Part shown: in pieces, positions 23,194-64,000 of the stretch
Position numbering within the stretch: position 1 is the first letter of the stretch
How the letters are laid out: each line of letters opens with the position of its first letter
NCBI RefSeq assembly: GCF_053078305.1
Contig: NZ_CP166879.1
Strand: one strand, 5' to 3'
Length of the DNA stretch: 64,000 bases
The notes under the pieces: model-generated
What the model was told of the DNA's origin: nothing
What the model saw: the letters and a program-made list of their open reading frames with translations, nothing else
Databases searched by the model: none
Program-made: the position numbers and the translations under genes

Positions 23194-23769
23194 GTGCAAC
23201 GTGAAGATGTACTGGGAGAAGCCCTGAAATTATTAGAATTACAAGGGATTGCCAACACCACGCTGGAGATGGTTGCTGAACGTGTGGATTATCCACTGGA
23301 CGAGCTACGCCGCTTCTGGCCAGACAAAGAGGCAATCCTCTACGATGCGCTGCGTTATCTTAGCCAACAGATAGATATCTGGCGTCGTCAGCTGATGCTG
23401 GACGAAACGCAAACCGCCGAACAAAAGCTGCTGGCACGTTATCAGGCGTTATCGGAGTGCGTTAAAAACAACCGCTATCCGGGCTGTCTATTTATCGCTG
23501 CCTGTACGTTTTATCCCGATCCTGGCCACCCTATTCATCAACTGGCCGATCAGCAAAAAAGCGCGGCCTACGATTTCACCCACGAACTGTTAACCACGTT
23601 GGAAGTTGACGATCCGGCGATGGTAGCAAAGCAGATGGAACTGGTGCTGGAAGGCTGTTTAAGCCGAATGCTGGTAAATCGTAGCCAGGCGGATGTCGAC
23701 ACTGCACATCGGCTGGCGGAAGATATCCTGCGCTTCGCCCGCTGCCGCCAGGGTGGCGCATTGACCTGA
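23194..23769 (+). CDS. yjdC: TetR-family transcriptional regulator YjdC
   Basis: In-frame GTG at 23194 gives 191 aa ([31 protein letters not shown], helix-turn-helix N-terminus); the track start 23170 is also a GTG, so the start is uncertain by 8 codons. Confidence 0.8.
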
Positions 23770-23875
23770 CAGAAACACAGAAAAGAAGCGATTTGCCGCA
23801 ATCTTAAGCAGTTGAATCGCTTTTACTGAAATTAGGTTGACGAGATGTGCAGATTACGGTTTAATGCGCCCCGTT

Positions 23876-23951
23876 GCCCGGATAGCTCAGTCGGTAGAGC
23901 AGGGGATTGAAAATCCCCGTGTCGGTGGTTCGATTCCGCCTCCGGGCACCA
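23876..23951 (+). tRNA. pheU: tRNA-Phe (anticodon GAA), pheU-type locus
   Basis: 76 nt: GCCCGGA acceptor stem pairing with TCCGGGC, D-arm AGCTCAGTCGGTAGAGC, anticodon loop ATTGAAAAT (GAA), T-loop TTCGATT, 3' CCA; followed directly by an integrase gene. Confidence 0.95.
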
Positions 23952-24146
23952 TATACCAGAACACGCTGGTTAAGGGATGAGATCCTTGACGGGCGGTTAA
24001 TACAGGATGCGGCATCAAAGGGTCTCCGTTTGTGTAAGTTGTGGTTACACTGATTGAGTTCGGTATCGTATCCTCAAACAGGGTCTCTTTTGCAGAGACG
24101 CCCTGTTCTCGTTAACACTGTATGCTTACATTGCTGATTCAGCCTG

Positions 24147-25184
24147 TCAAGATTTATTCCCCCCTTTGCAAATCTTGCTCACTGTGCGCTCATCTGTATA
24201 CAAACTCAGGGCATCTTCCAGTGTCTGCGCTGCAGACTCCATACAGACATCAACATACCCCATGGTCGTTGTAAGACTCCTGTGTCCCAGTATGGATTTG
24301 ACCAGATGTAAATTACGTTCAGGATATTTCATCAGTCTGGTTGCCAGCGTATGTCTGAAACGATGTGGTGAAACAGGAAAACCACATTCTCGCGAAAGTC
24401 GCCGGAAAAATGAACGTACGGTCTGATGCGCCCGAACGGGACAGTACTGATATCTGTCGGCAGAGATCGGCTCACTGAAACGACAGACGTCAAAAAGATA
24501 GTCATCATCACCTGCCCCGCACTGACGGGCCCGCTCCAGCAGTTTTTCCATCGATACCTTCAGGGGAGCCACCAGAGGAACGCCCCATTCCCTGTGAGTT
24601 TTACTTCCCTCCAGCTTAAGATCAATTATGCTTTCATCCGGACAGACATCCCTCACACGGATATGCTTCAGTTGATTAAAGCGCATTCCGGTATAACGCA
24701 GAACATCCAGAACTGTCAGCCAGTACCAGGCAGGGTATATAGCATTGCGTCGACGACTATTCACCATGTTCTGCTCTTCCGCTTCTGCAAACCTCTGCAC
24801 AACCAGGTAAACCCTGAGCATCTGATTGTCACTCAGTGTCTTTTTCTTTTTTTCAGTACTCGCAACTGATGCTTCCACCAACGGGTTTTCTGTCTGAGGC
24901 AGCAGTTTCATCTTGATCCCGAATCCCATAATTGCCCGCAAGTGGGCCACCTTGTTATTCCAGGTCACCTCCCTGCGCTTCTGCTCTTTCAGGACATAAC
25001 GCCGGTATCGCTGAACATCACGGACAGTCACCTCCCCCGGCAAAATATCACCGATAAATTCCCTGAATACCCTGACAACTTTGCAGTAGCTCCACTCTGT
25101 ATCCGGCCGAAGATTCTTTGAAAAAAAGTACTCTTCCAGCAGTTGTTCCCAGGTGATTTTTGTGACGGAATCGTCATTCTGCAT
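24147..25184 (-). CDS. Tyrosine-type site-specific integrase (island integrase)
   Basis: Start MQNDDSVTKITWEQLL (ATG 25184); catalytic signatures TGMRFNQL, HRFRHTLATRL and LGHRSLTTTMGYV; adjacent to the tRNA 3' end. Confidence 0.85.
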   Translation of the reverse strand: MQNDDSVTKITWEQLLEEYFFSKNLRPDTEWSYCKVVRVFREFIGDILPGEVTVRDVQRYRRYVLKEQKRREVTWNNKVAHLRAIMGFGIKMKLLPQTENPLVEASVASTEKKKKTLSDNQMLRVYLVVQRFAEAEEQNMVNSRRRNAIYPAWYWLTVLDVLRYTGMRFNQLKHIRVRDVCPDESIIDLKLEGSKTHREWGVPLVAPLKVSMEKLLERARQCGAGDDDYLFDVCRFSEPISADRYQYCPVRAHQTVRSFFRRLSRECGFPVSPHRFRHTLATRLMKYPERNLHLVKSILGHRSLTTTMGYVDVCMESAAQTLEDALSLYTDERTVSKICKGGNKS

Positions 25185-25251
25185 TATATATTCCCCTTGT
25201 TTACTGTGCTCCCGCACTCTCCGGTCAAATTCTGCACATCATCGCCTTTAC

Positions 25252-26739
25252 TCACCCGAAAACAATAAGCGGGCTGTCTCCGGGAACCGTAATATTCCCG
25301 TACAGAAACCTGCCCTTAACCAGATATCCCGAAACCATTTTGTAACGTCCGGAATGTTCTGCGTCACTATAAAGACGGGCCTGAAAAAAACGCTCTCCTG
25401 AACGTACCTTATGGATACCTGCCCGTTCAAAGAGCGACTGAACATAACGACGATCCTGCCCGGAACCACTCTCCTTCAGAAAACGATAAAAAATCCCCGG
25501 GGCACACAGAAAAACATATCCGGAAACAACATGAACATTTGAATCAACGCTGTTAACCGAAAGTGAACCCTCCCTCAGCCCCTCTTTTAACCATCTGATA
25601 AATTCACTCTCTACCCTGCTATCCTCTGTCAGGGAAAACTCTGCCGTTTTTTCCACTGTTTCCGGGATACGGTTTCCCTGATTTTCTGTTACACATCCGC
25701 TCTCTTCCGGTAACTCAATACCGCTTTCTTTATCCGGCGGCACGCCTGACGCTATCTGCCCTCCCTCATCCGACAAATCAGCAGCAGAAAACAGCGTAAG
25801 GAGCATTCCGGTATCAGCATCAGTTTCGTTCCCCTCATCCACCTCCTGTTCCGCTGTCCGGCCCTCATTTTCGGCATCCTCCACTGGCGACTGTACAACC
25901 GGCAACGGCTGAATGACGCTTTCTGCTGAAATTGCTGCTGACTGCAGCAGTACCGGAACAACCTCAGCCACCGGAACTTCGGCCACATCTCCTGCAGCGA
26001 GGGGACTCACGACTTCCTCCATAGCTTCCTGTAATACTGTACGTATCAGTGCCATTTCAGGATGCTGATGCCAGACTGCTCCGGCAAGATTCTGTAATGC
26101 CCCCGGGACAGTGGCAAGCCAGGCTCCCGCCTCTCCGGGCAGCAGTTGTCCCGCCATCAGGGCTGCCAGTTGCCGTCCCTCCGTTCCCTGGCAGGGCATC
26201 TTCCTGAACCGGAACCGGTATACGCCCTCAGGTACAGATATCCCCGGCTGCCAGCATCTGCCGTCGGCCTGTTCGCCTTCCAGTTCCGCCAGCAACGGCA
26301 GGTGATAAAACAGAGCCGACCAGAACACCACCATGTTCCACACACTCCCCTGCGCGGCCTGCTCTTCTGCTGTCGCTCCCGGTGGAAACATTCTGCCTCT
26401 GGCCAGCCGGACAGCATACGTCGTGAACTGCAGGGTCAGGTCACCAAAACCACCGGTGTAACCCCAGCGACCTTCTGCTGTGGCCGGCAGATTCTGACTG
26501 ACAGACAACAACTGATGCACAGGATCAAGACAAAGGCGCTGATACATATCCACCGGCATGGAACTGTTTTCCCATAACTGTTTCAGACACCTTTTCCTGA
26601 ACGGTGTGGATACCAGTACATCAGCCGGCAATGGTGTAAAATACCCCTCCGGCACCGTTTCCCCGGGAATATCCGTCCGGACATCAGAACATTCTGTCTT
26701 CACAGGAAATAACCTTTTCAGGCGTTCAAGCATGCCCAT
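25252..26739 (-). CDS. Hypothetical protein (495 aa) with an acidic low-complexity central region; operon partner of the helicase
   Basis: Long ORF whose start overlaps the stop of the upstream helicase gene by 14 nt; no motif I can assign. Confidence 0.5.
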   Translation of the reverse strand: MGMLERLKRLFPVKTECSDVRTDIPGETVPEGYFTPLPADVLVSTPFRKRCLKQLWENSSMPVDMYQRLCLDPVHQLLSVSQNLPATAEGRWGYTGGFGDLTLQFTTYAVRLARGRMFPPGATAEEQAAQGSVWNMVVFWSALFYHLPLLAELEGEQADGRCWQPGISVPEGVYRFRFRKMPCQGTEGRQLAALMAGQLLPGEAGAWLATVPGALQNLAGAVWHQHPEMALIRTVLQEAMEEVVSPLAAGDVAEVPVAEVVPVLLQSAAISAESVIQPLPVVQSPVEDAENEGRTAEQEVDEGNETDADTGMLLTLFSAADLSDEGGQIASGVPPDKESGIELPEESGCVTENQGNRIPETVEKTAEFSLTEDSRVESEFIRWLKEGLREGSLSVNSVDSNVHVVSGYVFLCAPGIFYRFLKESGSGQDRRYVQSLFERAGIHKVRSGERFFQARLYSDAEHSGRYKMVSGYLVKGRFLYGNITVPGDSPLIVFG

Positions 26740-28216
26740 TCTCCTGAACCCGACCTGATGTGTCGTACCCGGTCCCCCGCAGACCTTCAGTTTTCTGCTG
26801 TTCTTCTGCCAGTTGGTGCATCAGGTCATTCAGTACCAGCGTCCTGAGGGCCCGGGTGACAGCCACATATAACAGACAGGTTTCATCATGACGCTCGGCC
26901 TCCGTCATCAGCGGAACCGTGATATCCTGGAAATCCTCATCCAGCATTACAACCGGCCACTCCAGCCCCTTGCTCCGGTGTGCCGTTGACACCGTGATAT
27001 CTGCATCCTGCTCATTCGTTACCGTATACTGCCGGAGAAGTTCCAGTTTTTTCGGTAACGGAAAACACAACTCCAGAAGCCGAAGGGACTGATTCATCTC
27101 CACATCCTTCGTGGATTTTGCAATATATTTATATTCTTCAAAATTCCTGTAGTCCCGGCGCAGCCTGTCTGAATGCATCCGTTCCGGCATATCAACCTGG
27201 AACCAGTAGAGATCCTCAAGTTCCCCGGTCCTGTAACCTTCGATTCCCCCCACCCAGTAAACCTTTTGCCCTTTCATTGCCGCCATCAGCGCAGTACCAA
27301 TCACACCCGCGACAGTACGACTGAGTACCGTGTAATGCCCCTGCAGATGTTCACGCGCATGGCATTTCAGCAATACCTCATCATCACCACCACAACCTTT
27401 CACCTCTCGTGTTTCACCTTCACGCTGCAGAAGCAGATTTGCCATACGAGCCACCGCCGGACCAAAACGGAAACTCTGTGTCAGCCACAACCGGTCCGCA
27501 TTCTTCAGTGCAGGATGGGAAAGCGCATTATTCGCACCCCGAAAGCGGTAAATCTGTTGATAACAATCTCCAACAAGGACCACCCGACACTTCTGCCCCA
27601 GAACCAGAGCAGTGGTCACCGGATTCGCATCCTGCGCCTCATCAAACAGGATGGTGTCCCATCGGTGAGACAGGTCTGCACCGGACAACTGGAAGAGTTT
27701 CAGATAAGTATCGTGCGTCACCGGGAACGTCCCCCCGGGGTTGCTCATTTCGTTCCAGAGCAACTGCACCGCCCGAAGCGCATCTGCTGGCGGAACACCC
27801 CGCATCTCATCCTTATCCGGCAGGTGATGCAGGCCCGGTACCGCATCAGCAGAACAGATAAAATGATTCAGCCCCGTCCCTGCCACCCGTGCCAGAGCCC
27901 AGTATCGTGTATTCAGCTTTCTCGCCACATCAGTAATACGTAATCCCGGAACCAGCCGATGACGGTAGTGTCTTCCAACCCGGGCATACGCCAGCTGATG
28001 TGACGTTCTGCATTCCACGTTAAAGGGAAATTTACGCTCTGCCTCATCACGTATTGCCCGGTTATAGGCAAGATAGAGCATACGGCTGTCCGGACTGGCC
28101 CGGGCAAACTGCACCAGCGTACTCGTCTTCCCTGTGCCGGAAAACGCATTCACAACCAGTTGCTGCCCCTGCCAGTTAATAATGGCGTACTGTTCATCTG
28201 TGGGATTAAAAGACAT
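26726..28216 (-). CDS. UvrD/Rep-like superfamily 1 DNA helicase
   Basis: Start MSFNPTDEQYAIINWQ (ATG 28216); Walker A GTGKTS, motif II FDEAQD, C-terminal VAVTRA-type motif. Confidence 0.8.
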   Translation of the reverse strand: MSFNPTDEQYAIINWQGQQLVVNAFSGTGKTSTLVQFARASPDSRMLYLAYNRAIRDEAERKFPFNVECRTSHQLAYARVGRHYRHRLVPGLRITDVARKLNTRYWALARVAGTGLNHFICSADAVPGLHHLPDKDEMRGVPPADALRAVQLLWNEMSNPGGTFPVTHDTYLKLFQLSGADLSHRWDTILFDEAQDANPVTTALVLGQKCRVVLVGDCYQQIYRFRGANNALSHPALKNADRLWLTQSFRFGPAVARMANLLLQREGETREVKGCGGDDEVLLKCHAREHLQGHYTVLSRTVAGVIGTALMAAMKGQKVYWVGGIEGYRTGELEDLYWFQVDMPERMHSDRLRRDYRNFEEYKYIAKSTKDVEMNQSLRLLELCFPLPKKLELLRQYTVTNEQDADITVSTAHRSKGLEWPVVMLDEDFQDITVPLMTEAERHDETCLLYVAVTRALRTLVLNDLMHQLAEEQQKTEGLRGTGYDTSGRVQENGHA

Positions 28217-28447
28217 GTATTCTCTTCTCCGGAAAAACATTTCCGTAATCTGATGCATCAGGGGTATGCCCACCACAAATAACTCTGTACAGCAACAGAA
28301 AAATTTCCCTGGTCATATGATGAATTAATCATCGCCATCACACCGGATGCTTCTCATCCTGTCCTCAGAAAGACAGGTGGTCTCCTGTCTGCCGCGCTTA
28401 TCCAGGATACCGGGACCTGAAAGGTCATAATCTGGCAGGAAAAAATA

Positions 28448-30124
28448 ATGTCCGAAGTAAAAAAACACGTTTCTTATTCATTAACAGTTGCAGCTATGCT
28501 GTCAGCCGCCATCGTCTGTCAGACAGCACATGCTGATATCAACACACCGAACATCACCGGAGAAAAAAACAATACAACAACACGATTCTCCGGAAATATT
28601 TACGGCAGTGAAAATACTGTCACATCAGAGTCAAACAGTCTGGTTGTGGGTAACAGTAATTCCGTGGAGGGAGGGTATAACAACATTGTTATTGGTAATT
28701 CCTCCACGGTCAAAGCTTCCGGTTTGATCAGAAAAGTGGGCGAAGATATTGTGCTGGATGGTTACAGCGTCAGCCTCGGTAATGCCACCAGAATTAACGG
28801 TGATTCATCTGTTGCCATAGGTCTGACATCGTCCGTAACCGGGAACGACTCCGTGGCACTGGGCAGTCATTCCAGTGCTAACGGAAACAATATCGTATCC
28901 GTCGGCTCTGACACACTGAAACGCCGCATCACAAATCTGGCACAGGGGAAAGATGACCATGATGCGGTAAATCTGATGCAGATGACCAGTGCTGTTAACC
29001 GGGAAGCTGGAGAAAGAATAAAATCAACAAACAACCTGCAGAATCAGCTTAATACCCTCTCTGGTCAGGTCATAACTGAAACCAGGGCCCGAACAGAAGG
29101 TGATGCAGCAGCGCTGGCTGCAGCCAGAGCCCACAGCGATGAAAACGACAAAAGAACACTGGTCAGTGCGAATACCTATGCTGACCAGAAAGAAACCGCC
29201 ATCAATAACCGTACTGACGGATTACTGACGACCGAACGCCAGGCACGCACCGCAGGCGATACTGCAACTCTGGCTGCTGCCAGAACGCACAGCGATGAAA
29301 ACAACAAAAGAACACTGATCAGTGCGAATACCTATGCTGACCAGAAAGAAACCGCCATCAATAACCGTACTGACGGATTACTGGCTACAGAACGCCAGGC
29401 ACGCACCGCAGGCGATACTGCAACTCTGGCTGCTGCCAGAACGCACAGCGATGAAAACAACAAAAGAACACTGGTCAGTGCGAATACTTATGCTGACCAG
29501 AAAGAAACCGACATCAATAACCGTACTGACGGATTACTGGCTACAGAACGCCAGGCACGCACCGCAGGCGATACTGCAACTCTGGCTGCTGCCAGAACGC
29601 ACAGCGATGAAAACAACAAAAGAACACTGATCAGTGCGAATACCTATGCTGACCAGAAAGAAACCGCCATCAATAACCGTACTGACGGATTACTGACGAC
29701 CGAACGCCAGGCACGCATCGCAGGTGATGCCGCAACTCTGGCAACAGCAGCGGCATACAGTGACGCCGGGGATTCACTGACACTGAAACAGGCAACAGCC
29801 TACAGCGATATCAGTACCCGCCGGGCACTGTCAGAGGCCAATCGTTATACCGACAACAAATTCAGAAACCTGAGCAATAAAATTGAACGGGCAGAAAAAA
29901 GACTTAATGCAGGCATCGCCGGAGTGACAGCAATATCCTCCATCCCCTATGTGGCTGAAAATTCTTTTTCATACGGGATCGGCGTGGGTAACTATCAGAA
30001 CGCTAATGCTGTGGCCGCAGGCATTCAGTATAAAACATCACGTAATACCAATATACGCCTCAACATCTCCTGGGACTCATCTCATAACACCGCGATTGGT
30101 GCAGGGGTTGCCGGCGGCTGGTAA
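28448..30124 (+). CDS. Trimeric autotransporter adhesin (YadA-like; Eib/Saa-like size class)
   Basis: Signal peptide (AAMLSAAIVCQTAHA); head repeats (NSVEGGYNNIVIGNSS, SVAIGLTSSVTGNDSVALG); coiled-coil stalk with tandem repeats; C-terminal YadA anchor ending NISWDSSHNTAIGAGVAGGW. Confidence 0.8.
   Translation: MSEVKKHVSYSLTVAAMLSAAIVCQTAHADINTPNITGEKNNTTTRFSGNIYGSENTVTSESNSLVVGNSNSVEGGYNNIVIGNSSTVKASGLIRKVGEDIVLDGYSVSLGNATRINGDSSVAIGLTSSVTGNDSVALGSHSSANGNNIVSVGSDTLKRRITNLAQGKDDHDAVNLMQMTSAVNREAGERIKSTNNLQNQLNTLSGQVITETRARTEGDAAALAAARAHSDENDKRTLVSANTYADQKETAINNRTDGLLTTERQARTAGDTATLAAARTHSDENNKRTLISANTYADQKETAINNRTDGLLATERQARTAGDTATLAAARTHSDENNKRTLVSANTYADQKETDINNRTDGLLATERQARTAGDTATLAAARTHSDENNKRTLISANTYADQKETAINNRTDGLLTTERQARIAGDAATLATAAAYSDAGDSLTLKQATAYSDISTRRALSEANRYTDNKFRNLSNKIERAEKRLNAGIAGVTAISSIPYVAENSFSYGIGVGNYQNANAVAAGIQYKTSRNTNIRLNISWDSSHNTAIGAGVAGGW
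29132..29755 (+). repeat. Four tandem copies of a 156-bp (52-codon) in-frame repeat inside the adhesin stalk
   Basis: Unit starts at 29132, 29288, 29444 and 29600 (CACAGCGATGAAAAC...), near-identical; encodes HSDENNKRTL(V/I)SANTYADQKETAINNRTDGLL(T/A)TERQARTAGDTATLAAART. Confidence 0.9.
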
Positions 30125-40020: not shown

Positions 40021-40103
40021 ACACATGCATGATAACAAAGTGGAGGTGGTTTCACCCCCACTTTATAATTATACACACATCACAAAATTCGCAGGTGAGT
40101 TCA

Positions 40104-40802
40104 ATGACAACATGTTCTGAACTGAAGGAAAGAGCCCGTTTTGATGGTATGCATGATGCTTCTCTTGAAGTGGCATGGCAATTACTTATGACGAAAAGTG
40201 TATCCACTATTACTACTGAGATAATATCCGGTGCAGACATGTCCAATTTTTCAGTGATTATCAGGGAACGATATAAACATGCAATAGCAAAATCTCTTCT
40301 CAATCATTTATCTCCCGATGTTGTTTCTGACATCATCGGTTTATCTCATGATGAGTTCAATCAACAATATAAAGGCAATTTAACCAGACAACAACACCTG
40401 AGAGATATTGCTGTAAGTTTAACAGATAAAGGATTCACAGAATCATCTGCATGTAATATTGTCAACCTGGACCTAATGTTACTTCCTGAAGAAAACTGGT
40501 TACTTTATAAAGAAAATTACAATACAGGATATCAGGATGCACTTTATAAATCCGTATGGAGAATGCACACATACGAATATCCAACAGCAACCATCAGTTG
40601 TTTGACAAAATTAAATAATGAAAATATATTAAATATTATTACAGGTATAGAAGTAATACTCCTCGCAGCAAAAAAACCTGCATGTAAAGACAGAACAGAT
40701 AAAATTGCTGAAATGCTGAAAATACCATTCTCTGTCGTCAAAGAATTTATTGATGAACAGGCTTTATTGAACAAATCAAACATTCAGGGAACTGGCAGTT
40801 GA
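40104..40802 (+). CDS. Hypothetical protein immediately downstream of res
   Basis: ORF 40029..40802; preferred start ATG 40104 (MTTCSELKERARF) with AGGTGA Shine-Dalgarno; AT-rich like mod/res. Confidence 0.45.
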   Translation: MTTCSELKERARFDGMHDASLEVAWQLLMTKSVSTITTEIISGADMSNFSVIIRERYKHAIAKSLLNHLSPDVVSDIIGLSHDEFNQQYKGNLTRQQHLRDIAVSLTDKGFTESSACNIVNLDLMLLPEENWLLYKENYNTGYQDALYKSVWRMHTYEYPTATISCLTKLNNENILNIITGIEVILLAAKKPACKDRTDKIAEMLKIPFSVVKEFIDEQALLNKSNIQGTGS

Positions 40803-40848
40803 ACAAAACGCCAGTCCGAAGACTGGCGCAGTGATAAAACATTCTGCA

Positions 40849-41535
40849 TCATGCCACATTCTGCTCCTGAAGATGACGCAGACGATGGTCCCAGTTTCCC
40901 AGGTAATGCCCGGGCGTCAGCAGTACGCGGCGTCGCTCATTACAGAGCGAGTTACCAATCACCACTTCTCCGGCCACACCACACAACGACAGTTGTATAT
41001 ACGCCATGCCGGCTGCCAGCGGGTCAATATCCGTTGCCGACACCCACATCCTGCGATATGCCGGATACCCCGAACGGTTCAGGGTGTCAGCCATTGCCAG
41101 AATCATACTGCCGGCACCACAGGCAGGTTCACTGAGCGTGATAAAGGGTTTGTTCTCAAACAACGCCTTCACATCTCCCATCTGCATCTGTGCCATCATG
41201 CTGGCAACACTCCAGGGCGTGAAAAACTGACTCCGGTATTTATCCCCCAGTTCCAGTTGCATGAACACACTCCCCAGAAAATCACAGACTCCCTGCTCCA
41301 GTCCCTCAATGACATGAGCAAGCAAATGCGCAATGTGGATAACATCCTGCTTTTCATAACCACTGACGATCCGCAGATACTTCTGTTCCCGGGCCTCACT
41401 GAACTGAAGCCGGTTTTCCAAGGCAATCACACTACAGCTGACAAAGTCTTCAAACACCTTATGACGTTTGTGATAACAGGCTGTCCGGTTAAACAACGAA
41501 ATGAACTCCTTCTGATGGTCAGTCATGGTGGCCAT
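40849..41535 (-). CDS. N6-adenine DNA methyltransferase-like protein (HsdM-like fold, short, apparent degenerate motif IV)
   Basis: 228 aa; QFFTPWSV and SEPACGAGSM resemble the FxTP and AdoMet-binding motifs of HsdM-like methyltransferases; no canonical NPPF/DPPY seen. Confidence 0.55.
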   Translation of the reverse strand: MATMTDHQKEFISLFNRTACYHKRHKVFEDFVSCSVIALENRLQFSEAREQKYLRIVSGYEKQDVIHIAHLLAHVIEGLEQGVCDFLGSVFMQLELGDKYRSQFFTPWSVASMMAQMQMGDVKALFENKPFITLSEPACGAGSMILAMADTLNRSGYPAYRRMWVSATDIDPLAAGMAYIQLSLCGVAGEVVIGNSLCNERRRVLLTPGHYLGNWDHRLRHLQEQNVA

Positions 41536-41646
41536 GTTTTCTCCGTAAAAACAGGGAACACATGGCCCGGACAGGGGAACAGGTGTTCCCCTTCGGGTTG
41601 AAATGTTGATAAAACGGGCATCACGGACATGATACCCGGAGGTTAA

Positions 41647-52643: not shown

Positions 52644-53601
52644 GTCTTCATCCTCATCAGCAGCTCTTCAGTGGATAACATCCACAGTTACACCTGCATT
52701 TACGCGCAACAAAAACACCAGATGAAGATTTTATTCATTCAGCTCCGCTAAAAATTAATCTTGCTGTGGAATATCGGGAAAACAGGAAGTTACGTTAAAA
52801 GCCGAAGGAAAAACTCACAATCCCTTCTTCAATCAGCCTCTGAAAATCGGCTTTTCAGCATGTCTTCCCCCATTGTTCGTATACCCTGTTCGATGGATTA
52901 TTATTGATCCATATGATCGCTTCACGTAAACACGATTCTGGCTCCACACCATTCTGGACGCGATTGTTACCAAAAAAGACAACCATCACAAGACGTCACA
53001 GACGGTGCGTGCGCTTACTCCTGTATATCTGGCGCAACAGAATCTACCAGTGTAAACTCTCTATGCTTTTGCGCAGAAGCAGTGGGCCTGGGTTCGCTTA
53101 TGTCCTGCATCTACAAGCGAATGACTGACCAGAGACTCCCATATCTGGTCAGTCGCCCATTTTTATTTTCCCTATACACTCAGACTACAATAGCCGTAAC
53201 AAACAGCATACCCCCAGTCATAGTGGCCCCTTTATCTTCTTATGGCTTGTCTGTGGTACTGGAGATAGAGCAACTGTGGGAGTACTGTTATGGCCCCCGG
53301 TAAGAAAAACTCTTGCTTAATGTACAGCAGAACTGTTCCCAGAAAGAAGCCTGTGCATATTTTCATAGAAGGAGATCACCCATAACGGCGTTTTTCACGG
53401 TAATACACGCCAGGTAAAGAATGCTGGATTATCAATCAAAGCTCCGCACAGGAAGCGCTTATGCCGTAGAGCGCCCTCTGGAGAAAAGTGCTACTTCTTG
53501 TCGATTCAGACTAGTTCAGGAAATTATACGAAAATATTACCTGAATGAGCTAAATGTTATTTACCTTCCTTTCTGTTCATTGTAAATTTTTTCTTGCTAA
53601 C

Positions 53602-53620
53602 GCAAATCATTATCATTACG
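53602..53620. promoter_or_regulatory. Candidate Fur box upstream of the TonB-dependent receptor gene
   Basis: GCAAATCATTATCATTACG: three NAT(A/T)AT-like hexamers (AATCAT TATCAT TACGAT) matching the Fur consensus GATAATGATAATCATTATC core, 21 bp upstream of the start. Confidence 0.5.
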
Positions 53621-53640
53621 ATTTTAGAAAAGGGAAATTT

Positions 53641-55689
53641 ATGAAGAACAAATATATCATTGCTCCGGGCATTGCCGTGATATGTTCTGCAGTCATATCA
53701 TCAGGTTATGCCAGTTCTGATAAAAAAGAAGATACGCTTGTTGTTACTGCCTCCGGCTTCACTCAGCAACTCAGAAATGCACCGGCCAGTGTTTCAGTCA
53801 TTACTTCAGAGCAACTGCAAAAAAAACCGGTTTCAGACCTGGTCGATGCGGTAAAAGATGTTGAAGGGATTAGTATCACCGGTGGGAATGAAAAACCGGA
53901 TATCAGTATACGTGGGTTAAGTGGCGATTATACATTGATTCTGGTCGATGGACGACGTCAGAGTGGTCGGGAATCCAGACCAAACGGCAGCGGCGGTTTT
54001 GAAGCCGGATTTATCCCTCCTGTGGAAGCAATTGAGCGTATTGAAGTTATACGTGGCCCTATGTCTTCCCTGTATGGTTCCGATGCTATCGGAGGAGTTA
54101 TTAATATCATAACCAAACCTGTTAATAACCAGACATGGGATGGCGTACTTGGGCTTGGGGGAATTATTCAGGAACATGGGAAATTTGGTAACTCAACCAC
54201 GAATGACTTCTACCTGTCAGGCCCATTGGTTAAGGATAAACTTGGTCTTCAGTTATATGGAGGAATGAACTATCGCAAGGAAGATAGTATCTCTCAGGGA
54301 ACACCAGCAAAAGATAATAAGAATATAACGGCAACACTCCAGTTTACTCCGACTGAAAGCCAGAAGTTTGTTTTTGAATACGGAAAAAATAACCAGGAAC
54401 ATACATTAACACCTGGTGATTCTCTTGATGCCTGGACTATGCGGGGAAATCTTAAACAACCAAACAGTAAAAGAGAAACACATAACTCACGTAGTCACTG
54501 GGTAGCAGCATGGAATGCCCAGGGCGAAATACTGCATCCTGAAATTGCTGTTTATCAGGAGAAAGTTATTCGTGAGGTTAAATCTGGTAAAAAAGATAAA
54601 TATAATCATTGGGATCTTAATTACGAGTCAAGAAAACCGGAAATAACCAACACGATCATAGATGCAAAAGTGACGGCATTTCTGCCGGAAAATGTGCTGA
54701 CCATCGGAGGTCAATTTCAGCATGCAGAACTCCGTGATGACTCAGCCACAGGTAAAAAAACGACAGAAACACAGTCTGTTTCAGTTAAACAGAAAGCTGT
54801 TTTTATAGAAAATGAATATGCTGCAACGGATTCTCTCGCCCTGACTGGAGGGCTGCGCCTCGATAACCATGAAATCTATGGCAGTTACTGGAATCCAAGA
54901 TTGTATGCTGTTTATAACCTGACCGATAATCTCACTCTCAAAGGAGGGATCGCAAAAGCATTTCGGGCCCCTTCGATTCGTGAGGTCAGTCCTGGATTTG
55001 GAACACTGACGCAGGGTGGTGCCTCTATTATGTATGGAAACAGGGACCTGAAACCGGAGACCAGTGTAACCGAAGAGATCGGTATTATTTATAATAATGA
55101 CAGTGGTTTTTCAGCAAGCGCGACTCTGTTTAATACAGATTTTAAAAATAAGCTGACCAGTTACGATATAGGCACAAAAGATCCAGTCACTGGGCTAAAC
55201 ACTTTTATTTATGATAATGTGGGTGAGGCAAATATCAGAGGTGTGGAGCTTGCAACTCAGATTCCTGTGTATGATAAATGGCGTGTATCTGCAAACTATA
55301 CATTCACTGACTCCCGTCGAGAAAGCGATGACGAAAGTCTCAATGGCAAGTCGCTGAAAGGGGAACCTCTGGAAAGAACTCCCAGACATGCAGCCAATGC
55401 AAAACTGGAATGGGATTACACTCAGGATATTACATTTTATTCATCTCTGAATTATACAGGAAAACAAATCTGGGCAGCACAAAGAAATGGTGCCAAGGTT
55501 CCCCGTGTTCGTAATGGATTCACTTCTATGGATATTGGTATGAATTACCAGTTCCTGCCAGGCACGCTGATTAATTTTGCCGTACTTAACGTCACAGACA
55601 GAAAGAGCGAAGATATCGATACCATTGATGGTAACTGGCAGGTCGATGAAGGACGTCGTTACTGGGCTAATGTAAGAATATCCTTCTGA
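53641..55689 (+). CDS. TonB-dependent outer-membrane siderophore receptor (IrgA/Iha/CirA-like)
   Basis: Start MKNKYIIAPGIAVICSA (ATG 53641, AAGGGAAA upstream); TonB box DTLVVTAS; plug motifs IRGPMSSLYGSDAIGGVINIIT; C-terminal aromatic residue (RYWANVRISF). Confidence 0.9.
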   Translation: MKNKYIIAPGIAVICSAVISSGYASSDKKEDTLVVTASGFTQQLRNAPASVSVITSEQLQKKPVSDLVDAVKDVEGISITGGNEKPDISIRGLSGDYTLILVDGRRQSGRESRPNGSGGFEAGFIPPVEAIERIEVIRGPMSSLYGSDAIGGVINIITKPVNNQTWDGVLGLGGIIQEHGKFGNSTTNDFYLSGPLVKDKLGLQLYGGMNYRKEDSISQGTPAKDNKNITATLQFTPTESQKFVFEYGKNNQEHTLTPGDSLDAWTMRGNLKQPNSKRETHNSRSHWVAAWNAQGEILHPEIAVYQEKVIREVKSGKKDKYNHWDLNYESRKPEITNTIIDAKVTAFLPENVLTIGGQFQHAELRDDSATGKKTTETQSVSVKQKAVFIENEYAATDSLALTGGLRLDNHEIYGSYWNPRLYAVYNLTDNLTLKGGIAKAFRAPSIREVSPGFGTLTQGGASIMYGNRDLKPETSVTEEIGIIYNNDSGFSASATLFNTDFKNKLTSYDIGTKDPVTGLNTFIYDNVGEANIRGVELATQIPVYDKWRVSANYTFTDSRRESDDESLNGKSLKGEPLERTPRHAANAKLEWDYTQDITFYSSLNYTGKQIWAAQRNGAKVPRVRNGFTSMDIGMNYQFLPGTLINFAVLNVTDRKSEDIDTIDGNWQVDEGRRYWANVRISF

Positions 55690-55725: not shown

Positions 55726-56362
55726 ACCAGTATAGTAATCAGTAACGTCAGCTTCCAGGTTGTAATGCTTTTAATTTTGATAAAAATAAACTTAATAAAT
55801 TACATTTGTTAAATATTGATAATTTTAATTTGGTTTTATTACTCCAGTTATACTCACACTCTATCTTTACACAATTCATCACCATTACACCTCCATAGCC
55901 TGTTGATTTAAAAGATTTAATTTCCTGTGAAACAATCAGGCCTGTATGAACCTGATTATACCACAGAATCTTTTAAGTTATTTAAATTTAACTCTCGGGC
56001 TTTTCTGTCAGTAAAATCAGAAAAATTGCAGGATTTCGTTTTTTTTGCTGCGAAGTGAAATGTATCTCATTTTTACTGCCTTCGCCAGTGCGTCAGGCAA
56101 TGGCAGGTAGTGTACCTGCATTCTGCTGTAACGCGTAATGTCGGGTAGTTTACTTAAACTTAATATGTTTTATGTTTGCATTATTATAAATCACTTTATT
56201 GCCTTTTGTCTGCTTTTTAATGGTTCCCGTTTTGTTCACTTCTGGCTTTATAAAAAATGGATGCTGAAGAAATGAAGGTAGTCCACCTTACATAATATTC
56301 ATGCATGATTTTTATGCTATTCCGACTGAGTGGAAGAAAATAAAGGAGAAAAGAGGGTATAT

Positions 56363-59300
56363 ATGAACCTCAGAAAAAAACATATCTGTATAGCCATATC
56401 ACTTGTTCTTAATCCGGCATCCATATCACAGGTCAGTGCTCAGGCAGATACAAATAAGTTAACTGTTGAAGTTGATGAAACCAGCCTTGGCCATGATGTC
56501 TATGGCGATGACTGGAAGAGCATTGAAATAGGTACAACGAAATTTACAGCAAAAGATGAATCAAAGGGAATTAATTTCGACCATAAATCACCGGTGGCTG
56601 AAGGACGTAACTCTATCGCGATTGGTACCAGTGCAGAGGCTGGAGGTGACATTAGCACGAAGGAAGGTTTGTACACAGGCGAGTCTATTGCGATAGGAGC
56701 GAAAACGAAAGCAACTAAAGAACAGTCAATTGCAATAGGTGGCGATACCAAAGCTACCGGATGGGGGGCTATTGTTATTGGTGGGGATGATTTAACTCCT
56801 TTGCATGGTAAGACTTATGGTCGGGAAAAAATAGAGAATGGCTATCTTGCATCGGAAGCGCAGGGGGATGGCAGTATTGCGCTGGGCAGCAGAACTTTTG
56901 CTAAAGGCGAATTGTCAGTATCGCTTGGTTCGGTGAGTTCTGCTGAGGGGATGGCCTCGAATGCAATTGGAGCCACGGCGGAAGCTAAAGGGGATATGGC
57001 GACTGCGGTTGGTTTTAATGCGCTGGCTAATGCCGGTAATGCTCTGGCCGTTGGTAGTCAGTCCTCTGCAAATAAAAACGATGCTCTTGCTGTTGGTTCA
57101 GAGGCAAATGCCGCTCAGAATGAAACGGTTGCCCTGGGGCATGGAGCAACCGTTACTGTCGCAAAGGGGAACGTGTCCATCGGCGCTGACTCCAGGGATA
57201 AGCAGGCACAAAAAGTAACAGAGGCTAAGGTCAGAACTAAAAGAGGCGCGGAAGTCACATATAGTGGCTTTGCCGGAAATAACGCAGCATCAGTAGTATC
57301 TGTTGGTGATGCGGGTAAAGAGCGTCAGATTGTTAACGTGGGGGCGGGTGCGATTTCTGACACAAGTACAGATGCCATTAACGGTAGTCAGTTATATGCG
57401 ATAGCGAAGACACTGAAAGATGACCTTGATGCCATTAATCCGACGTGGACGCTAAAGGATGATAAGGGAGGTTCTGCGACTATTAATGGTGGGAAGGATA
57501 ATAAGAATGGTAACACTTTAACTGTTAAAGGTGATGGAGATATTGCAGTTACTGTTAATGATAAAGGAATGACGATTGACGGAACAACGCTGAAAAATGA
57601 AATAAAAAATGATGCCATCAAAATTAAAGGTGGAGATGGTAAGACGCTGACGAAGAGTCTTGGTGACAATGTCGAAATCACTGGCAAAGGCCCAATAAAA
57701 ACCCAGGTGGCTGGAGATAAACTGGAGATTTCAGCAGAGACAGCTTCGTTGCCTGTAAATGGTGGTAACGGGAAGATTACAGTAAACAATGGTGATGGCG
57801 ATAAACTTGTTACTGCGAAAAACATTGCTGATGCCATAAACCAGTCTGGCTGGAAAATTAAAGCGGATAAAGATACCGGTGGTGTTATCGAGGGAAATGG
57901 TCAGGGAACAGAAACACTGATAAAACCCGGTGATATGGTTACGCTGAAAGCCGGTAAAAATCTCAGCGTGAAACAAAGTGGTGGTGATTTTACATTCTCT
58001 GTTATTGATACTCCGTCATTCAGCAGTGTTCAGCTGAATGGAAAAGGAAATAACGGAAGTGTAACGCTCTCATCCGAAGGTAATAAGCTGACATTGTCAG
58101 GCGGTAATGGTGCCGGACAAAATGGTGTTGTTATCAGTGGTGTGGCAAGTGGACTGGAAGGTAAGGAACTTTCGACGTTAACGAATACTGATAAAGAGAT
58201 GAAAAATGCCGCCAGTGTTGCAGACCTGAAAACGGCAATTGATGGTGTGTCCTCCAGTATGCAGGGTGCAGGTTTCGCACTGAAAGACTCTGATGATAAG
58301 GAAGTGAAACAGTCTCTTGGGCAGGCGATTAAAGTATCCGGGGACAGCAATATCACCACCACAGCCATCACCAATGGGGATAAGGGGTTAAAAATATCCC
58401 TGAATAATGACCTGAGCGTTGGGAGCAATAATACTCCCGGCAGCATCAAAGTTAACGGGGCTGATGGTAAGGAGGCTGTGAGTCTGAATGGTCAGGATGG
58501 CACGATTAAACTGACATCCTCGCCTGCTGCGGGTGGAAAGTCTGCGTCAGCAACCATTGCTGTTAATGCAGGCAAAGGTGGATTAACAGATGCTGCCGGT
58601 ACCACGAAGACACGTCTGACTTATACCCCGGATGGAAAATCACCGGCAGAAGAGCTGGCGACCATGAATGACGGTCTTTCTTTTGAGGGTGATGACGGAA
58701 AGGTTATTCATAAAAAACTGAATGAAAAACTGACCATCAAAGGTGGTGCAGAGAAGAATGCTGAAGTGACTGACGGCAATATCCGGGTTGATAATGATAA
58801 TGGCGGGCTTCTGGTGAGGATGACCAGAAACCTCCGTGATTTGGCCAGCGCGGTTTTTGGTACAGGTGGGCAGATAACAACAGTTAATGATAAAGGCATC
58901 ACAATCACAACACCTGCTGCGGGCGGTGGTCAGGGGAATACGGTTTCCCTTACCGGCTCCGGCCTGAATAACGGTGGAAATCAGATAACCAGTGTGGCCA
59001 GTGGTCTGAACGGCACTGCGCTTGCTGACGCCGGTGGAGATGTTCTGAATAATGCGGCCAATATCGGTGACCTGAAAAATGCTCTCCGTGACAGCAGTGC
59101 GGCACTGGTGAATACCGGCTTTGGTCTGCAGGCGGATGACGGAAGCAAGGTGAACACGTCTCTCGGGAAGCATATCACGGTTGGTGGTGACGGGCAGAAT
59201 ATCAGCACGACTGTTCAGAACGGGAGCCTGACGGTCAGACTCGCTGATAACATTCGCCTGGGAGATGACGGCAGTGTTTCTGTCGGCGGAACCCGGATGG

Positions 59301-60694
59301 ATAAAAACGGACTGACCATCAAGGATGGCCCGTCAGTGACTGTGAACGGTATTGATGCGGCTGGCCGGGTTATTTCCGGCGTGAAAGACGGGGTGAATGA
59401 CCAGGACGCCGTTAACGTTTCACAACTGAACCGTGAAATCAGTCAGGCAACGGCAGCAACGACCTGGGCACTGAAGACTGAATCCGGTGATGAGGCTGTT
59501 GCTGTTTCCTCCCAGACGGTTGAAGTCCGTCACGGACAGAATACCCGGGTTTCAGCCATCAGTAAGGATGATAAGGGAAATTACAGCTATGAGATTGATG
59601 TGACGGGGATTCCGGTGGAGTACACCGACAGCCAGGGGAACCCGCTTGTCAATATTGGTGGTCGTTTTTACACACAGACCGAAGATGCTGCGACCGGGAA
59701 ACTGACAATGACGCCGGCTGAGCCGGCCCGTGTCAGAATAAGCAGTGAGCAGCCTCTTGTTCTGACAAATGTGGCGGCCGGAAATGTGTCACCGGTATCC
59801 ACGGATGCGGTTAACGGGAGCCAGCTGGCATCTGCAGCCAGAATTGCTGGCGGTGATAATGTTGTCTGGAAAGACGGAAAAGCAGCGCTGGCTCCTGACA
59901 CCTTCAGTGAGCTGACAACTGCAGGTGGCGGTAAGACAACGGTGAATGGTGGTGTACATAAAACACCGGATAATGTGGCTGATGCAGTGAATATGCTGAA
60001 CCGTGAAGGCACGAAGTATTTTAAAGCTGCCTCTTCCGGTCAGGCAGCAAAAGCGGAAGGGCGTGACAGTATTGCTGTCGGACAGGGGGCCGTTTCCCGG
60101 GGACAAAACAGCATTGCCATGGGTAATGGTGCTGAAGTCACGCGTCAGGCTGCTGCCGGCTCTGTTGCAGTTGGCAGCCATGCCCGTGCTGGCCGCGCGA
60201 ATACCGGGACTTATGCCCTGAACGGTCAGGCTGTTGCGGGACGTACCGGAAGTGATACTGCGGTGGTTTCTTTTGGTCAGCCGGGACAGGAGCGTCAGCT
60301 GCAGTCAGTGGCACCGGGTGTGTTGTCTGCGAATTCAACGGATGCCGTCAATGGCAGTCAGTTGCATGCAACTAACCGTCAGGTTGCCGGAAATACACAG
60401 GCGATAAACACCCTCGGGAATAAATTCAGTCAGCTGAGCTACCGGGTGGAAGAGCTTAACCGGGATATCCGTGGTGTTGGTGCATCGGCTGCGGCCATGA
60501 GCGGGATACCTCAGGCCTATCTGCCGGGTAAAAGTCTGATGGGGCTGGGTGTCGGTGGATATGGTGGTGAAAGCGCCATTGCAATAGGGGTGTCCCGAAT
60601 CTCCGATAACGGTAAGATGATAATGAAACTGAATGCAGGTCAGAACACCCGGGGTAATTTCTCCGTCGGTGCCGGTGTGGGCTGGCAGTGGTAA
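56363..60694 (+). CDS. Large trimeric autotransporter adhesin (UpaG/EhaG-like)
   Basis: Start MNLRKKHICIAISLVLNPASISQVSAQA (ATG 56363); many head/neck repeats (SIAIGTSAEA, AVGFNALANAGNALAVGSQSSA, NAIGATAEA); C-terminal YadA anchor ending GAGVGWQW. Confidence 0.85.
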   Translation: MNLRKKHICIAISLVLNPASISQVSAQADTNKLTVEVDETSLGHDVYGDDWKSIEIGTTKFTAKDESKGINFDHKSPVAEGRNSIAIGTSAEAGGDISTKEGLYTGESIAIGAKTKATKEQSIAIGGDTKATGWGAIVIGGDDLTPLHGKTYGREKIENGYLASEAQGDGSIALGSRTFAKGELSVSLGSVSSAEGMASNAIGATAEAKGDMATAVGFNALANAGNALAVGSQSSANKNDALAVGSEANAAQNETVALGHGATVTVAKGNVSIGADSRDKQAQKVTEAKVRTKRGAEVTYSGFAGNNAASVVSVGDAGKERQIVNVGAGAISDTSTDAINGSQLYAIAKTLKDDLDAINPTWTLKDDKGGSATINGGKDNKNGNTLTVKGDGDIAVTVNDKGMTIDGTTLKNEIKNDAIKIKGGDGKTLTKSLGDNVEITGKGPIKTQVAGDKLEISAETASLPVNGGNGKITVNNGDGDKLVTAKNIADAINQSGWKIKADKDTGGVIEGNGQGTETLIKPGDMVTLKAGKNLSVKQSGGDFTFSVIDTPSFSSVQLNGKGNNGSVTLSSEGNKLTLSGGNGAGQNGVVISGVASGLEGKELSTLTNTDKEMKNAASVADLKTAIDGVSSSMQGAGFALKDSDDKEVKQSLGQAIKVSGDSNITTTAITNGDKGLKISLNNDLSVGSNNTPGSIKVNGADGKEAVSLNGQDGTIKLTSSPAAGGKSASATIAVNAGKGGLTDAAGTTKTRLTYTPDGKSPAEELATMNDGLSFEGDDGKVIHKKLNEKLTIKGGAEKNAEVTDGNIRVDNDNGGLLVRMTRNLRDLASAVFGTGGQITTVNDKGITITTPAAGGGQGNTVSLTGSGLNNGGNQITSVASGLNGTALADAGGDVLNNAANIGDLKNALRDSSAALVNTGFGLQADDGSKVNTSLGKHITVGGDGQNISTTVQNGSLTVRLADNIRLGDDGSVSVGGTRMDKNGLTIKDGPSVTVNGIDAAGRVISGVKDGVNDQDAVNVSQLNREISQATAATTWALKTESGDEAVAVSSQTVEVRHGQNTRVSAISKDDKGNYSYEIDVTGIPVEYTDSQGNPLVNIGGRFYTQTEDAATGKLTMTPAEPARVRISSEQPLVLTNVAAGNVSPVSTDAVNGSQLASAARIAGGDNVVWKDGKAALAPDTFSELTTAGGGKTTVNGGVHKTPDNVADAVNMLNREGTKYFKAASSGQAAKAEGRDSIAVGQGAVSRGQNSIAMGNGAEVTRQAAAGSVAVGSHARAGRANTGTYALNGQAVAGRTGSDTAVVSFGQPGQERQLQSVAPGVLSANSTDAVNGSQLHATNRQVAGNTQAINTLGNKFSQLSYRVEELNRDIRGVGASAAAMSGIPQAYLPGKSLMGLGVGGYGGESAIAIGVSRISDNGKMIMKLNAGQNTRGNFSVGAGVGWQW

Positions 60695-63590: not shown

Positions 63591-64000
63591 TTAGACGTTG
63601 ACGCCGTGCTGGGAAGCAAGCGCTGACAGGCCACCGGAAAAACCCTGACCGACAGCTTTAAACTTCCACTCAGCGCCATGGCGATACAGTTCACCGAAGA
63701 CCATTGCGGTTTCAGTTGAGGCGTCTTCAGACAGATCGAAACGGGCAATTTCCGCGCCGTTATCGTTGTTGTAAACGCGCATGAAGCTGTTGCTCACCAT
63801 GCCGAAATTTTGTTTACGCGCTTCTGCATCATAGATGGTAACGGCAAATACCAGTTTTTTGACGTCAACTGAGACTTTTGCCAGATCGATTTTAATTTGC
63901 TCATCGTCACCATCGCCTTCACCGGTACGGTTGTCACCCTGGTGCTCTACTGCGCCATCAGGGCTGGTTTTATTATTGAAGAAAATGAAATGGGCATCTG
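63591..64000 (-). CDS. TerD-family tellurium-resistance/stress protein, 3' portion; 5' end beyond window
   Basis: Frame open to the window edge; C-terminus [83 protein letters not shown] is characteristic of TerD/TerE/TerZ. Confidence 0.8.

Follow-up and report, generated by a model that had tools for sequence, protein, structure and literature searches.

The insertion of integrative elements into tRNA genes is said to follow a general rule, which was reportedly set out by Reiter et al. 1989 and by Williams 2002, the latter reportedly also treating the tyrosine integrases that target these genes. In such elements, the attP site carries a fragment of the target tRNA gene, and integration leaves a recombinant functional tRNA at one end of the element and the displaced fragment at the other (PMC7192596). 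ICEs of the ICEEc2 type have been described at pheU and pheV of E. coli (PMC6761156, PMC11537424, PMC13127887), and both excision to a circle and conjugative transfer were reported for ICEs at these two genes (PMC13127887). We compared these systems with a tRNA-Phe locus in the window, by which we mean the whole 64,000-nt stretch of DNA that was analyzed (contig NZ_CP166879.1). By its description, ICEEc2 of E. coli BEN374 (Roche et al. 2010, J Bacteriol 192:5026) is an element of the pKLC102/PAPI family that lies downstream of a tRNA-Phe gene, as does the window's element. ICEEc2 reportedly has a trio of DNA-mobility genes at one end; in the window's element, an integrase, TraI and helicase trio is found at one end.

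The comparison extends to two other described groups. SPI-7 of Salmonella Typhi, bounded by direct repeats, has a complete pheU on one side and a partial one on the other (PMC4100779). Its likeness to the window's element is seen in relatives of the latter, which carry SPI-7-type DnaB-PI and proteins of the STY4528 and STY4534 families in RefSeq, but host and cargo differ. PAPI-1, pKLC102 and PFGI-1 of Pseudomonas resemble the window's element in that a XerC-like integrase adjoins the att site, TraI is of the PFGI-1 class and ParA lies at the opposite end. They also integrate into the 3' part of a tRNA gene; however, they use tRNA-Lys while the window's element uses tRNA-Phe (PMC6761156). The cargo in the window (type III restriction-modification, IreA and trimeric autotransporter adhesins) differs from that of relatives such as FHI_NMBU_10. 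With respect to the general rule for tRNA genes, the window's ICE follows the same principle except that its attP fragment differs from the host gene by two base pairs, and it is because of this difference that the exchange is visible. The mechanism is the well-known, textbook one for integrative elements that target tRNA genes, and the family to which the element belongs has been described before.

The tRNA-Phe gene and its T-stem

The sole tRNA that ARAGORN detected in the 64-kb window was a tRNA-Phe(GAA) at 23876-23951 on the plus strand. The gene and its parts are as follows (window coordinate = 23875 + tRNA position):

23876..23951, plus strand: probable hybrid pheU, tRNA-Phe(GAA), read as attL of the ICE (ARAGORN; Rfam tRNA, 69.1 bits)
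23876..23901, plus strand: tRNA positions 1-26, chromosomal and outside the att repeat; identical to K-12 together with the upstream flank; neither the partial tRNA at attR nor the one at the tandem junction includes this part
23902..23923, plus strand: tRNA positions 27-48, anticodon stem-loop and variable loop, the putative strand-exchange region; 21-22 bp identical in attB and attP
23924..23951, plus strand: tRNA positions 49-76, T-arm and 3' acceptor strand of probable ICE origin; four differences from K-12, and the same sequence at the tandem junction in L004

The initial annotation had described this tRNA as intact with a GAA anticodon, and this agreed with both the ARAGORN call and the covariance model, in which the window tRNA scored 69.1 bits against Rfam RF00005 (gathering score 29) and K-12 pheU scored 68.3 bits. 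Upstream of the tRNA are dcuA, cutA, dsbD and dicD/yjdC, and this flank matches nearly all E. coli genomes. Since dsbD and dicD lie upstream as in K-12, and the flank is shared with E. coli genomes, we identified the locus as E. coli pheU. Alignment with K-12 pheU (NC_000913.3, L001:2552-2627, minus strand) indicated that the upstream 100 nt and tRNA positions 1-48 are identical in the two, and that the tRNAs differ solely at positions 49, 50, 64 and 65 (window 23924, 23925, 23939 and 23940). The homology to K-12 breaks off directly after the CCA. In K-12, the canonical downstream flank of pheU (L001:2192-2551; compare L003:30616-30972) is a remnant of a P4-type island with a yjdQ integrase pseudogene.

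The T-stem reads GGTGG/CCGCC in the window and CTTGG/CCGAG in K-12 pheU, so that two pairs are changed in a compensatory manner, C49-G65 to G-C and U50-A64 to G-C. The alignment bore out the K-12 stem and the two pair changes as the initial annotation had given them. It also revealed four differences between the reference pheU and the window tRNA, identity of the two being the observation that the same annotation had named as speaking against its reading. Both natural tRNAs folded into a cloverleaf, with a minimum free energy of -37.1 kcal/mol for the window tRNA and -34.1 kcal/mol for that of K-12, whereas artificial tRNAs in which one strand of the T-stem was swapped lost the T-arm and formed no cloverleaf. 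Because the natural versions fold and the half-swapped T-arms do not, the changes in the T-stem are truly compensatory.

The downstream element and its att sites

The window holds the following features directly downstream of the tRNA:

23952..24146, no strand assigned: ICE left arm, from the tRNA to the integrase stop codon, with inverted repeats at 23964-23995 and 24079-24105
24147..25217, minus strand: tyrosine recombinase, XerC/XerD-like integrase, 356-aa ORF (Pfam Phage_integrase, 1.8e-17, and an N-terminal SAM-like domain)
25252..26739, minus strand: TraI relaxase of the PFGI-1 (MOBH) class (Pfam TraI_2 and TraI_2_C; NCBIfam TIGR03760, 210.5 bits, cut-off 161.4)
26726..28276, minus strand: UvrD-like helicase, last of the three DNA-mobility genes (Pfam UvrD-helicase and UvrD_C)

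The integrase has a RefSeq homologue of 345 aa (WP_001178612.1), matches the XerC/XerD/XerA models of NCBIfam only weakly, and is 100% identical to the integrases of L002 and L004. Its gene had been said to begin about 200 bp downstream of the tRNA; the distance was correct (196 nt), but it is the stop codon of the minus-strand ORF and not its start that lies there, and the gene converges on the tRNA. The order int-TraI-UvrD is also annotated in L002, in L004 (strain 2015C-3121), and in L135 and L136 (strain 154). The 271-nt stretch comprising the tRNA and the left arm (23876-24146) was found at 97.8-99.6% identity in 22 E. coli genomes. In one of the relatives, E. coli FHI_NMBU_10, this stretch is 99.6% and the integrase 100% identical to the window, and the element is ~80 kb long. 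The RefSeq annotation of the FHI_NMBU_10 element includes TIGR037xx conjugation genes, TraD, TraG, topoisomerase III, ParB and an SPI-7-type DnaB (DnaB-PI), with ParA at the far end. The window contains the first ~40 kb of its element, and the conjugation and maintenance genes were read in relatives with a 99.6% identical junction. A block with ArdC, DUF1281 and integrase-domain genes was 99% identical between the window and its relatives. Since the element is a mosaic, none of the complete E. coli genome records reached a coverage of 80% for window 39001-64000. At the level of sequence, assignment of the element from 23952 onward to the PAPI-1/pKLC102/SPI-7/ICEEc2-type ICEs is supported.

Further into the element, the window carries these cargo genes:

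28448-30124: YadA-like trimeric autotransporter, 558 aa
35069-40020: type III restriction-modification system, with a 678-aa methyltransferase-like ORF and a 970-aa endonuclease
53554-55689: siderophore receptor IreA (1513.6 bits against NF010011)
56330-60694: trimeric autotransporter adhesin, 1454 aa

The 970-aa type III endonuclease scored 1073 bits against NF012027, and two ORFs (40029-40802 and 40831-41601) come after the restriction-modification genes. At the corresponding place, FHI_NMBU_10 has the subAB subtilase cytotoxin and a sialic-acid utilisation cluster instead of the virulence-type cargo of the window.

The left arm can be aligned across the element lineages of E. coli, Xenorhabdus and Photorhabdus, and its two inverted repeats (23964-23995 and 24079-24105) keep their structure across these lineages, RNAalifold indicating changes on both sides in 13 of the 25 predicted pairs. 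These repeats could be candidate binding sites for Int or for an excision factor, or the end of the pheU or int transcript. Neither promoters nor terminators came up when 23700-24300 was scanned with a simple method, and since the terminator scan was empty, a role of the second conserved hairpin as the pheU/int transcript end is unsupported.

A search for a second copy of tRNA-Phe across the 64-kb window matched only the tRNA itself, the far boundary of the element lying beyond base 64000. The direct repeat (attR) was read in close relatives, and the attR of the window's own element is deduced from theirs. The FHI_NMBU_10 element terminates in 50 nt of tRNA sequence (positions 27-76) in which the T-arm is the canonical one of K-12; on the 3' side of this partial tRNA lie the K-12 pheU flank, a yjdQ-type integrase remnant and cadC. 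Fifteen genomes share this far end at 200/200 identity and another 3 at 99.5%, and these 18 genomes are the same strains that have the window-type left junction. In the relatives, the direct repeat of the tRNA 3' end is a 50-nt copy with 46/50 identity. In E. coli 2015C-3121 (NZ_CP027340.1, L004:3024-5282), two ICEs lie in tandem and the ParA end of one is followed by tRNA positions 28-76 and then by the integrase of the next. The tandem junction has the variant GGTGG/CCGCC arm, and then the same downstream arm and integrase as the window. Since the junction between two ICEs carries the variant arm, the variant T-arm sits on the element's own attP-like site.

The two kinds of junction also delimit the crossover. 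Because attL has the element's bases and attR the host's bases at positions 49/50 and 64/65, the crossover lies 5' of position 49 and inside the repeat. Judged from the junction sequences, strand exchange must have taken place within tRNA positions 27-48 (window 23902-23923), where the exact cleavage sites would lie. For tyrosine integrases that target tRNA genes, the anticodon loop (7 nt) between the inverted halves of the anticodon stem is the likely overlap region. By analogy with this general behavior, the anticodon loop of pheU would most likely be the overlap region here.

The position and the length of the repeat, along with the gene order next to it, bear on whether the island could be of the P4-integrase type (GI-pheV/LEE/PAI), with an att site of 19-23 bp at the extreme 3' end of the tRNA. 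Although pheU and pheV are classic sites of such islands (PMC11537424) and the K-12 pheU flank holds the P4-type integrase remnant yjdQ, the integrase found here is XerC-like, has 345-356 aa, lies on the opposite strand and is followed by TraI and UvrD, whereas a P4-type integrase has ~420 aa and the orientation of the tRNA. The repeat of 50 nt reaches the anticodon stem, while an exchange of 23 bp could alter positions 64/65 but not 49/50 and would break the T-stem. A P4-type island was ruled out by integrase type, orientation and repeat length, and its probability is close to nil.

We conclude that the window tRNA is, very probably, the host pheU with its 3' end replaced by the attP copy of an integrated element of the PAPI-1/pKLC102/SPI-7 type and the ICEEc2 kind. 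The attP of the circular ICE would mimic the last 49-50 nt of a tRNA-Phe gene, with GGTGG/CCGCC as its T-stem, the native form in Xenorhabdus, Photorhabdus, Vibrio, Marinobacter and similar organisms, and the circular form would be expected to read ...GGGATTGAAAATCCCCGTGTCGGTGGTTCGATTCCGCCTCCGGGCACCA and then TATACCAG. The XerC-like integrase would recombine attP with pheU inside their common 21-22 bp (tRNA positions 27-48). The attL in the window would then combine the promoter and the first ~48 tRNA positions of the host with positions 49-76 of the element, and the original 3' end of the host gene would have moved to attR at the far end of the element, outside the window. Because both strands of the T-stem come from one donor, the stem would stay paired and the tRNA would work. 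We infer that the attR of the window's element is the same as in its relatives and that earlier hosts are reflected in the sequence of attP. The initial annotation had proposed the attP-borne copy of the incoming island as the source of the 3' part of the tRNA; the tandem junction, the attR of the relatives, the linkage to the ICE and the non-identical K-12 pheU all support this proposal. Its remark that such a supply is typical of tRNA-integrating elements matches the general rule given in PMC7192596.

Distribution of the variant T-arm

We determined the occurrence of the exact 76-nt variant in complete E. coli genomes and found it in 72 of 5429 records, the K-12 form being present in 5357. 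An adjacent ICE integrase/TraI junction accounted for 71 of the 72 variant records, most of them by junction homology and a few by arithmetic. The window-type junction was present in 22 records, a third-lineage junction (276/276 identity) in 30 and an MDR56/S19-651-type junction in about 19; one further record is strain C5, and one is the exception, DSM 103246. Of a group of twelve variant records, 8 are covered by the third-lineage junction matches; the other 4 of the 72 are placed by arithmetic and are most likely the CFIAFB and UCPROB genomes among the matches of the 271-nt stretch. When six variant records that the 271-nt junction match had missed were sampled, an integrase and TraI were found to adjoin the tRNA in 6/6, at pheU or pheV. 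The variant goes with the ICE at either gene, pheU or pheV, and across unrelated strain backgrounds. E. coli O22:H8 strain 154 (NZ_CP067426.1; L135 and L136) has an ICE of this type in each of the two genes; its pheU and pheV are both of the hybrid form, and a third tRNA-Phe copy was not found in the genome. In OkiPb01714, OkiPb01692, OkiPb01696 and TUM1886, ICE-junction matches were obtained at two different positions each, in different searches.

This census is difficult to reconcile with the variant T-stem being a vertically inherited allele of E. coli pheU, next to which the island was merely inserted. Such an allele would be a perfectly good tRNA, and DSM 103246 does have the variant without an adjoining ICE integrase. 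However, the variant occurs in only 72 of 5429 records, all but one with the ICE immediately downstream, at pheU as well as pheV and in unrelated backgrounds; moreover, the arm is canonical in the displaced copy at the far end and variant at the element's tandem junction. The census, together with the attR and tandem-junction sequences, ruled out a native E. coli polymorphism, and we consider inheritance of such an allele very improbable.

The variant arm is not universal in the ICE family within E. coli. At least four integrase lineages of the window's kind occur in this species, at 100%, ~70%, ~64% and 48% amino acid identity to the window's integrase. The ICE lineage of ECOR29 and FDAARGOS_1077, in which the integrase is 70% identical to that of the window, has the canonical T-arm at both ends, yet strain C5 has the junction type of ECOR29/FDAARGOS_1077 with the variant arm at attL. 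The single case of a variant without an adjoining ICE integrase is pheV of E. coli DSM 103246 (NZ_CP019944.1, L141:2501-2800, and L144). Directly after this tRNA comes a flank like that of K-12 pheU, with an intact P4-type integrase encoded on the same strand as the tRNA. From its sequence context, this pheV is best read as the putative scar of an ICE whose loss involved an exchange 3' of position 65.

These cases are the ones that could point to acquisition of the variant from foreign DNA or from the other tRNA-Phe gene, through homologous recombination or gene conversion, instead of by site-specific integration at this locus. One junction lineage shows both states, the variant in C5 and the canonical form in ECOR29, and in DSM 103246 the variant arm is detached from the ICE. 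Because the states of C5 and ECOR29 differ and because of DSM 103246, some recombination or repair within the 50-nt repeat does happen. As an account of the window tRNA, though, this origin is improbable: K-12 sequence gives way to foreign sequence at the att repeat, with the ICE arm and integrase coming immediately after, and the reciprocal product, a canonical arm at attR, was found in 18 genomes, which is the signature of a reciprocal site-specific exchange.

Outside E. coli, all 76 nt of the window tRNA were identical to the native tRNA-Phe at no fewer than 34 loci of other gammaproteobacteria among the matches listed. These include Xenorhabdus ehlersii (2 copies), Alcanivorax, Marinobacterium and Salinivibrio, again among the matches listed, and the variant 31-nt 3' end is native, among the same matches, to Vibrio, Aliivibrio, Photorhabdus, Arsenophonus, Marinobacter and others. 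At least 120 loci were covered in the species genomes scanned, and the resulting, incomplete list of taxa with the native variant names no single source genus. Integrases 51-53% identical to that of the window adjoin tRNA-Phe in the same arrangement in Xenorhabdus mauleonii, Photorhabdus thracensis and P. cinerea, and the native tRNA-Phe of these three species has the variant arm. Judged from these sequences, the attP of the ICE lineage may reasonably be supposed to have been shaped in Xenorhabdus/Photorhabdus-like hosts. Partial copies of tRNA-Phe that start from about positions 27-33 were also observed in Marinobacter, Xenorhabdus, Marinobacterium, Arsenophonus and Alcanivorax (L016, L052, L067, L078, L083, L084, L087, L105, L111, L124 and L127). 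A homologue of the window's integrase was matched only in L084 among these partial tRNA-Phe loci. In those genera, elements whose att site in tRNA-Phe is of comparable length appear to be widespread.

Function of the hybrid tRNA and significance of the locus

Since both tRNA-Phe genes of strain 154 are the variant and no other copy was found, the hybrid tRNA-Phe is, on genomic grounds, functional and would suffice for growth. Single-pair values for EF-Tu binding are available for both altered pairs, the change from C49-G65 to G-C being worth -0.4 kcal/mol and that from U50-A64 to G-C 0.0 kcal/mol (PMC3239215, Table 2). From these values we predict a change in EF-Tu binding of about -0.4 kcal/mol for the hybrid T-arm. 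One could imagine that the T-arm of the element, which replaces 2 of the 3 T-stem pairs that determine EF-Tu affinity, slightly retunes one or both tRNA-Phe genes of the cell and may persist after loss of the ICE as a heritable scar, for example in DSM 103246; we regard this idea as unlikely. If it is true, a leftover variant arm would record past occupancy by an ICE.

The analysis leaves the current understanding of how tRNA-targeting elements integrate unchanged. For annotation, it fixes the left boundary of the ICE at base 23952, defines the att repeat as tRNA positions 27-76 and narrows the exchange region to positions 27-48. In E. coli, a tRNA-Phe with GGTGG/CCGCC is a simple marker of a pheU or pheV that an ICE of this family occupies or, rarely, once occupied. 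That the hybrid is identical to tRNA-Phe of the Xenorhabdus type and of marine gammaproteobacteria hints at where the att site of the family was shaped.
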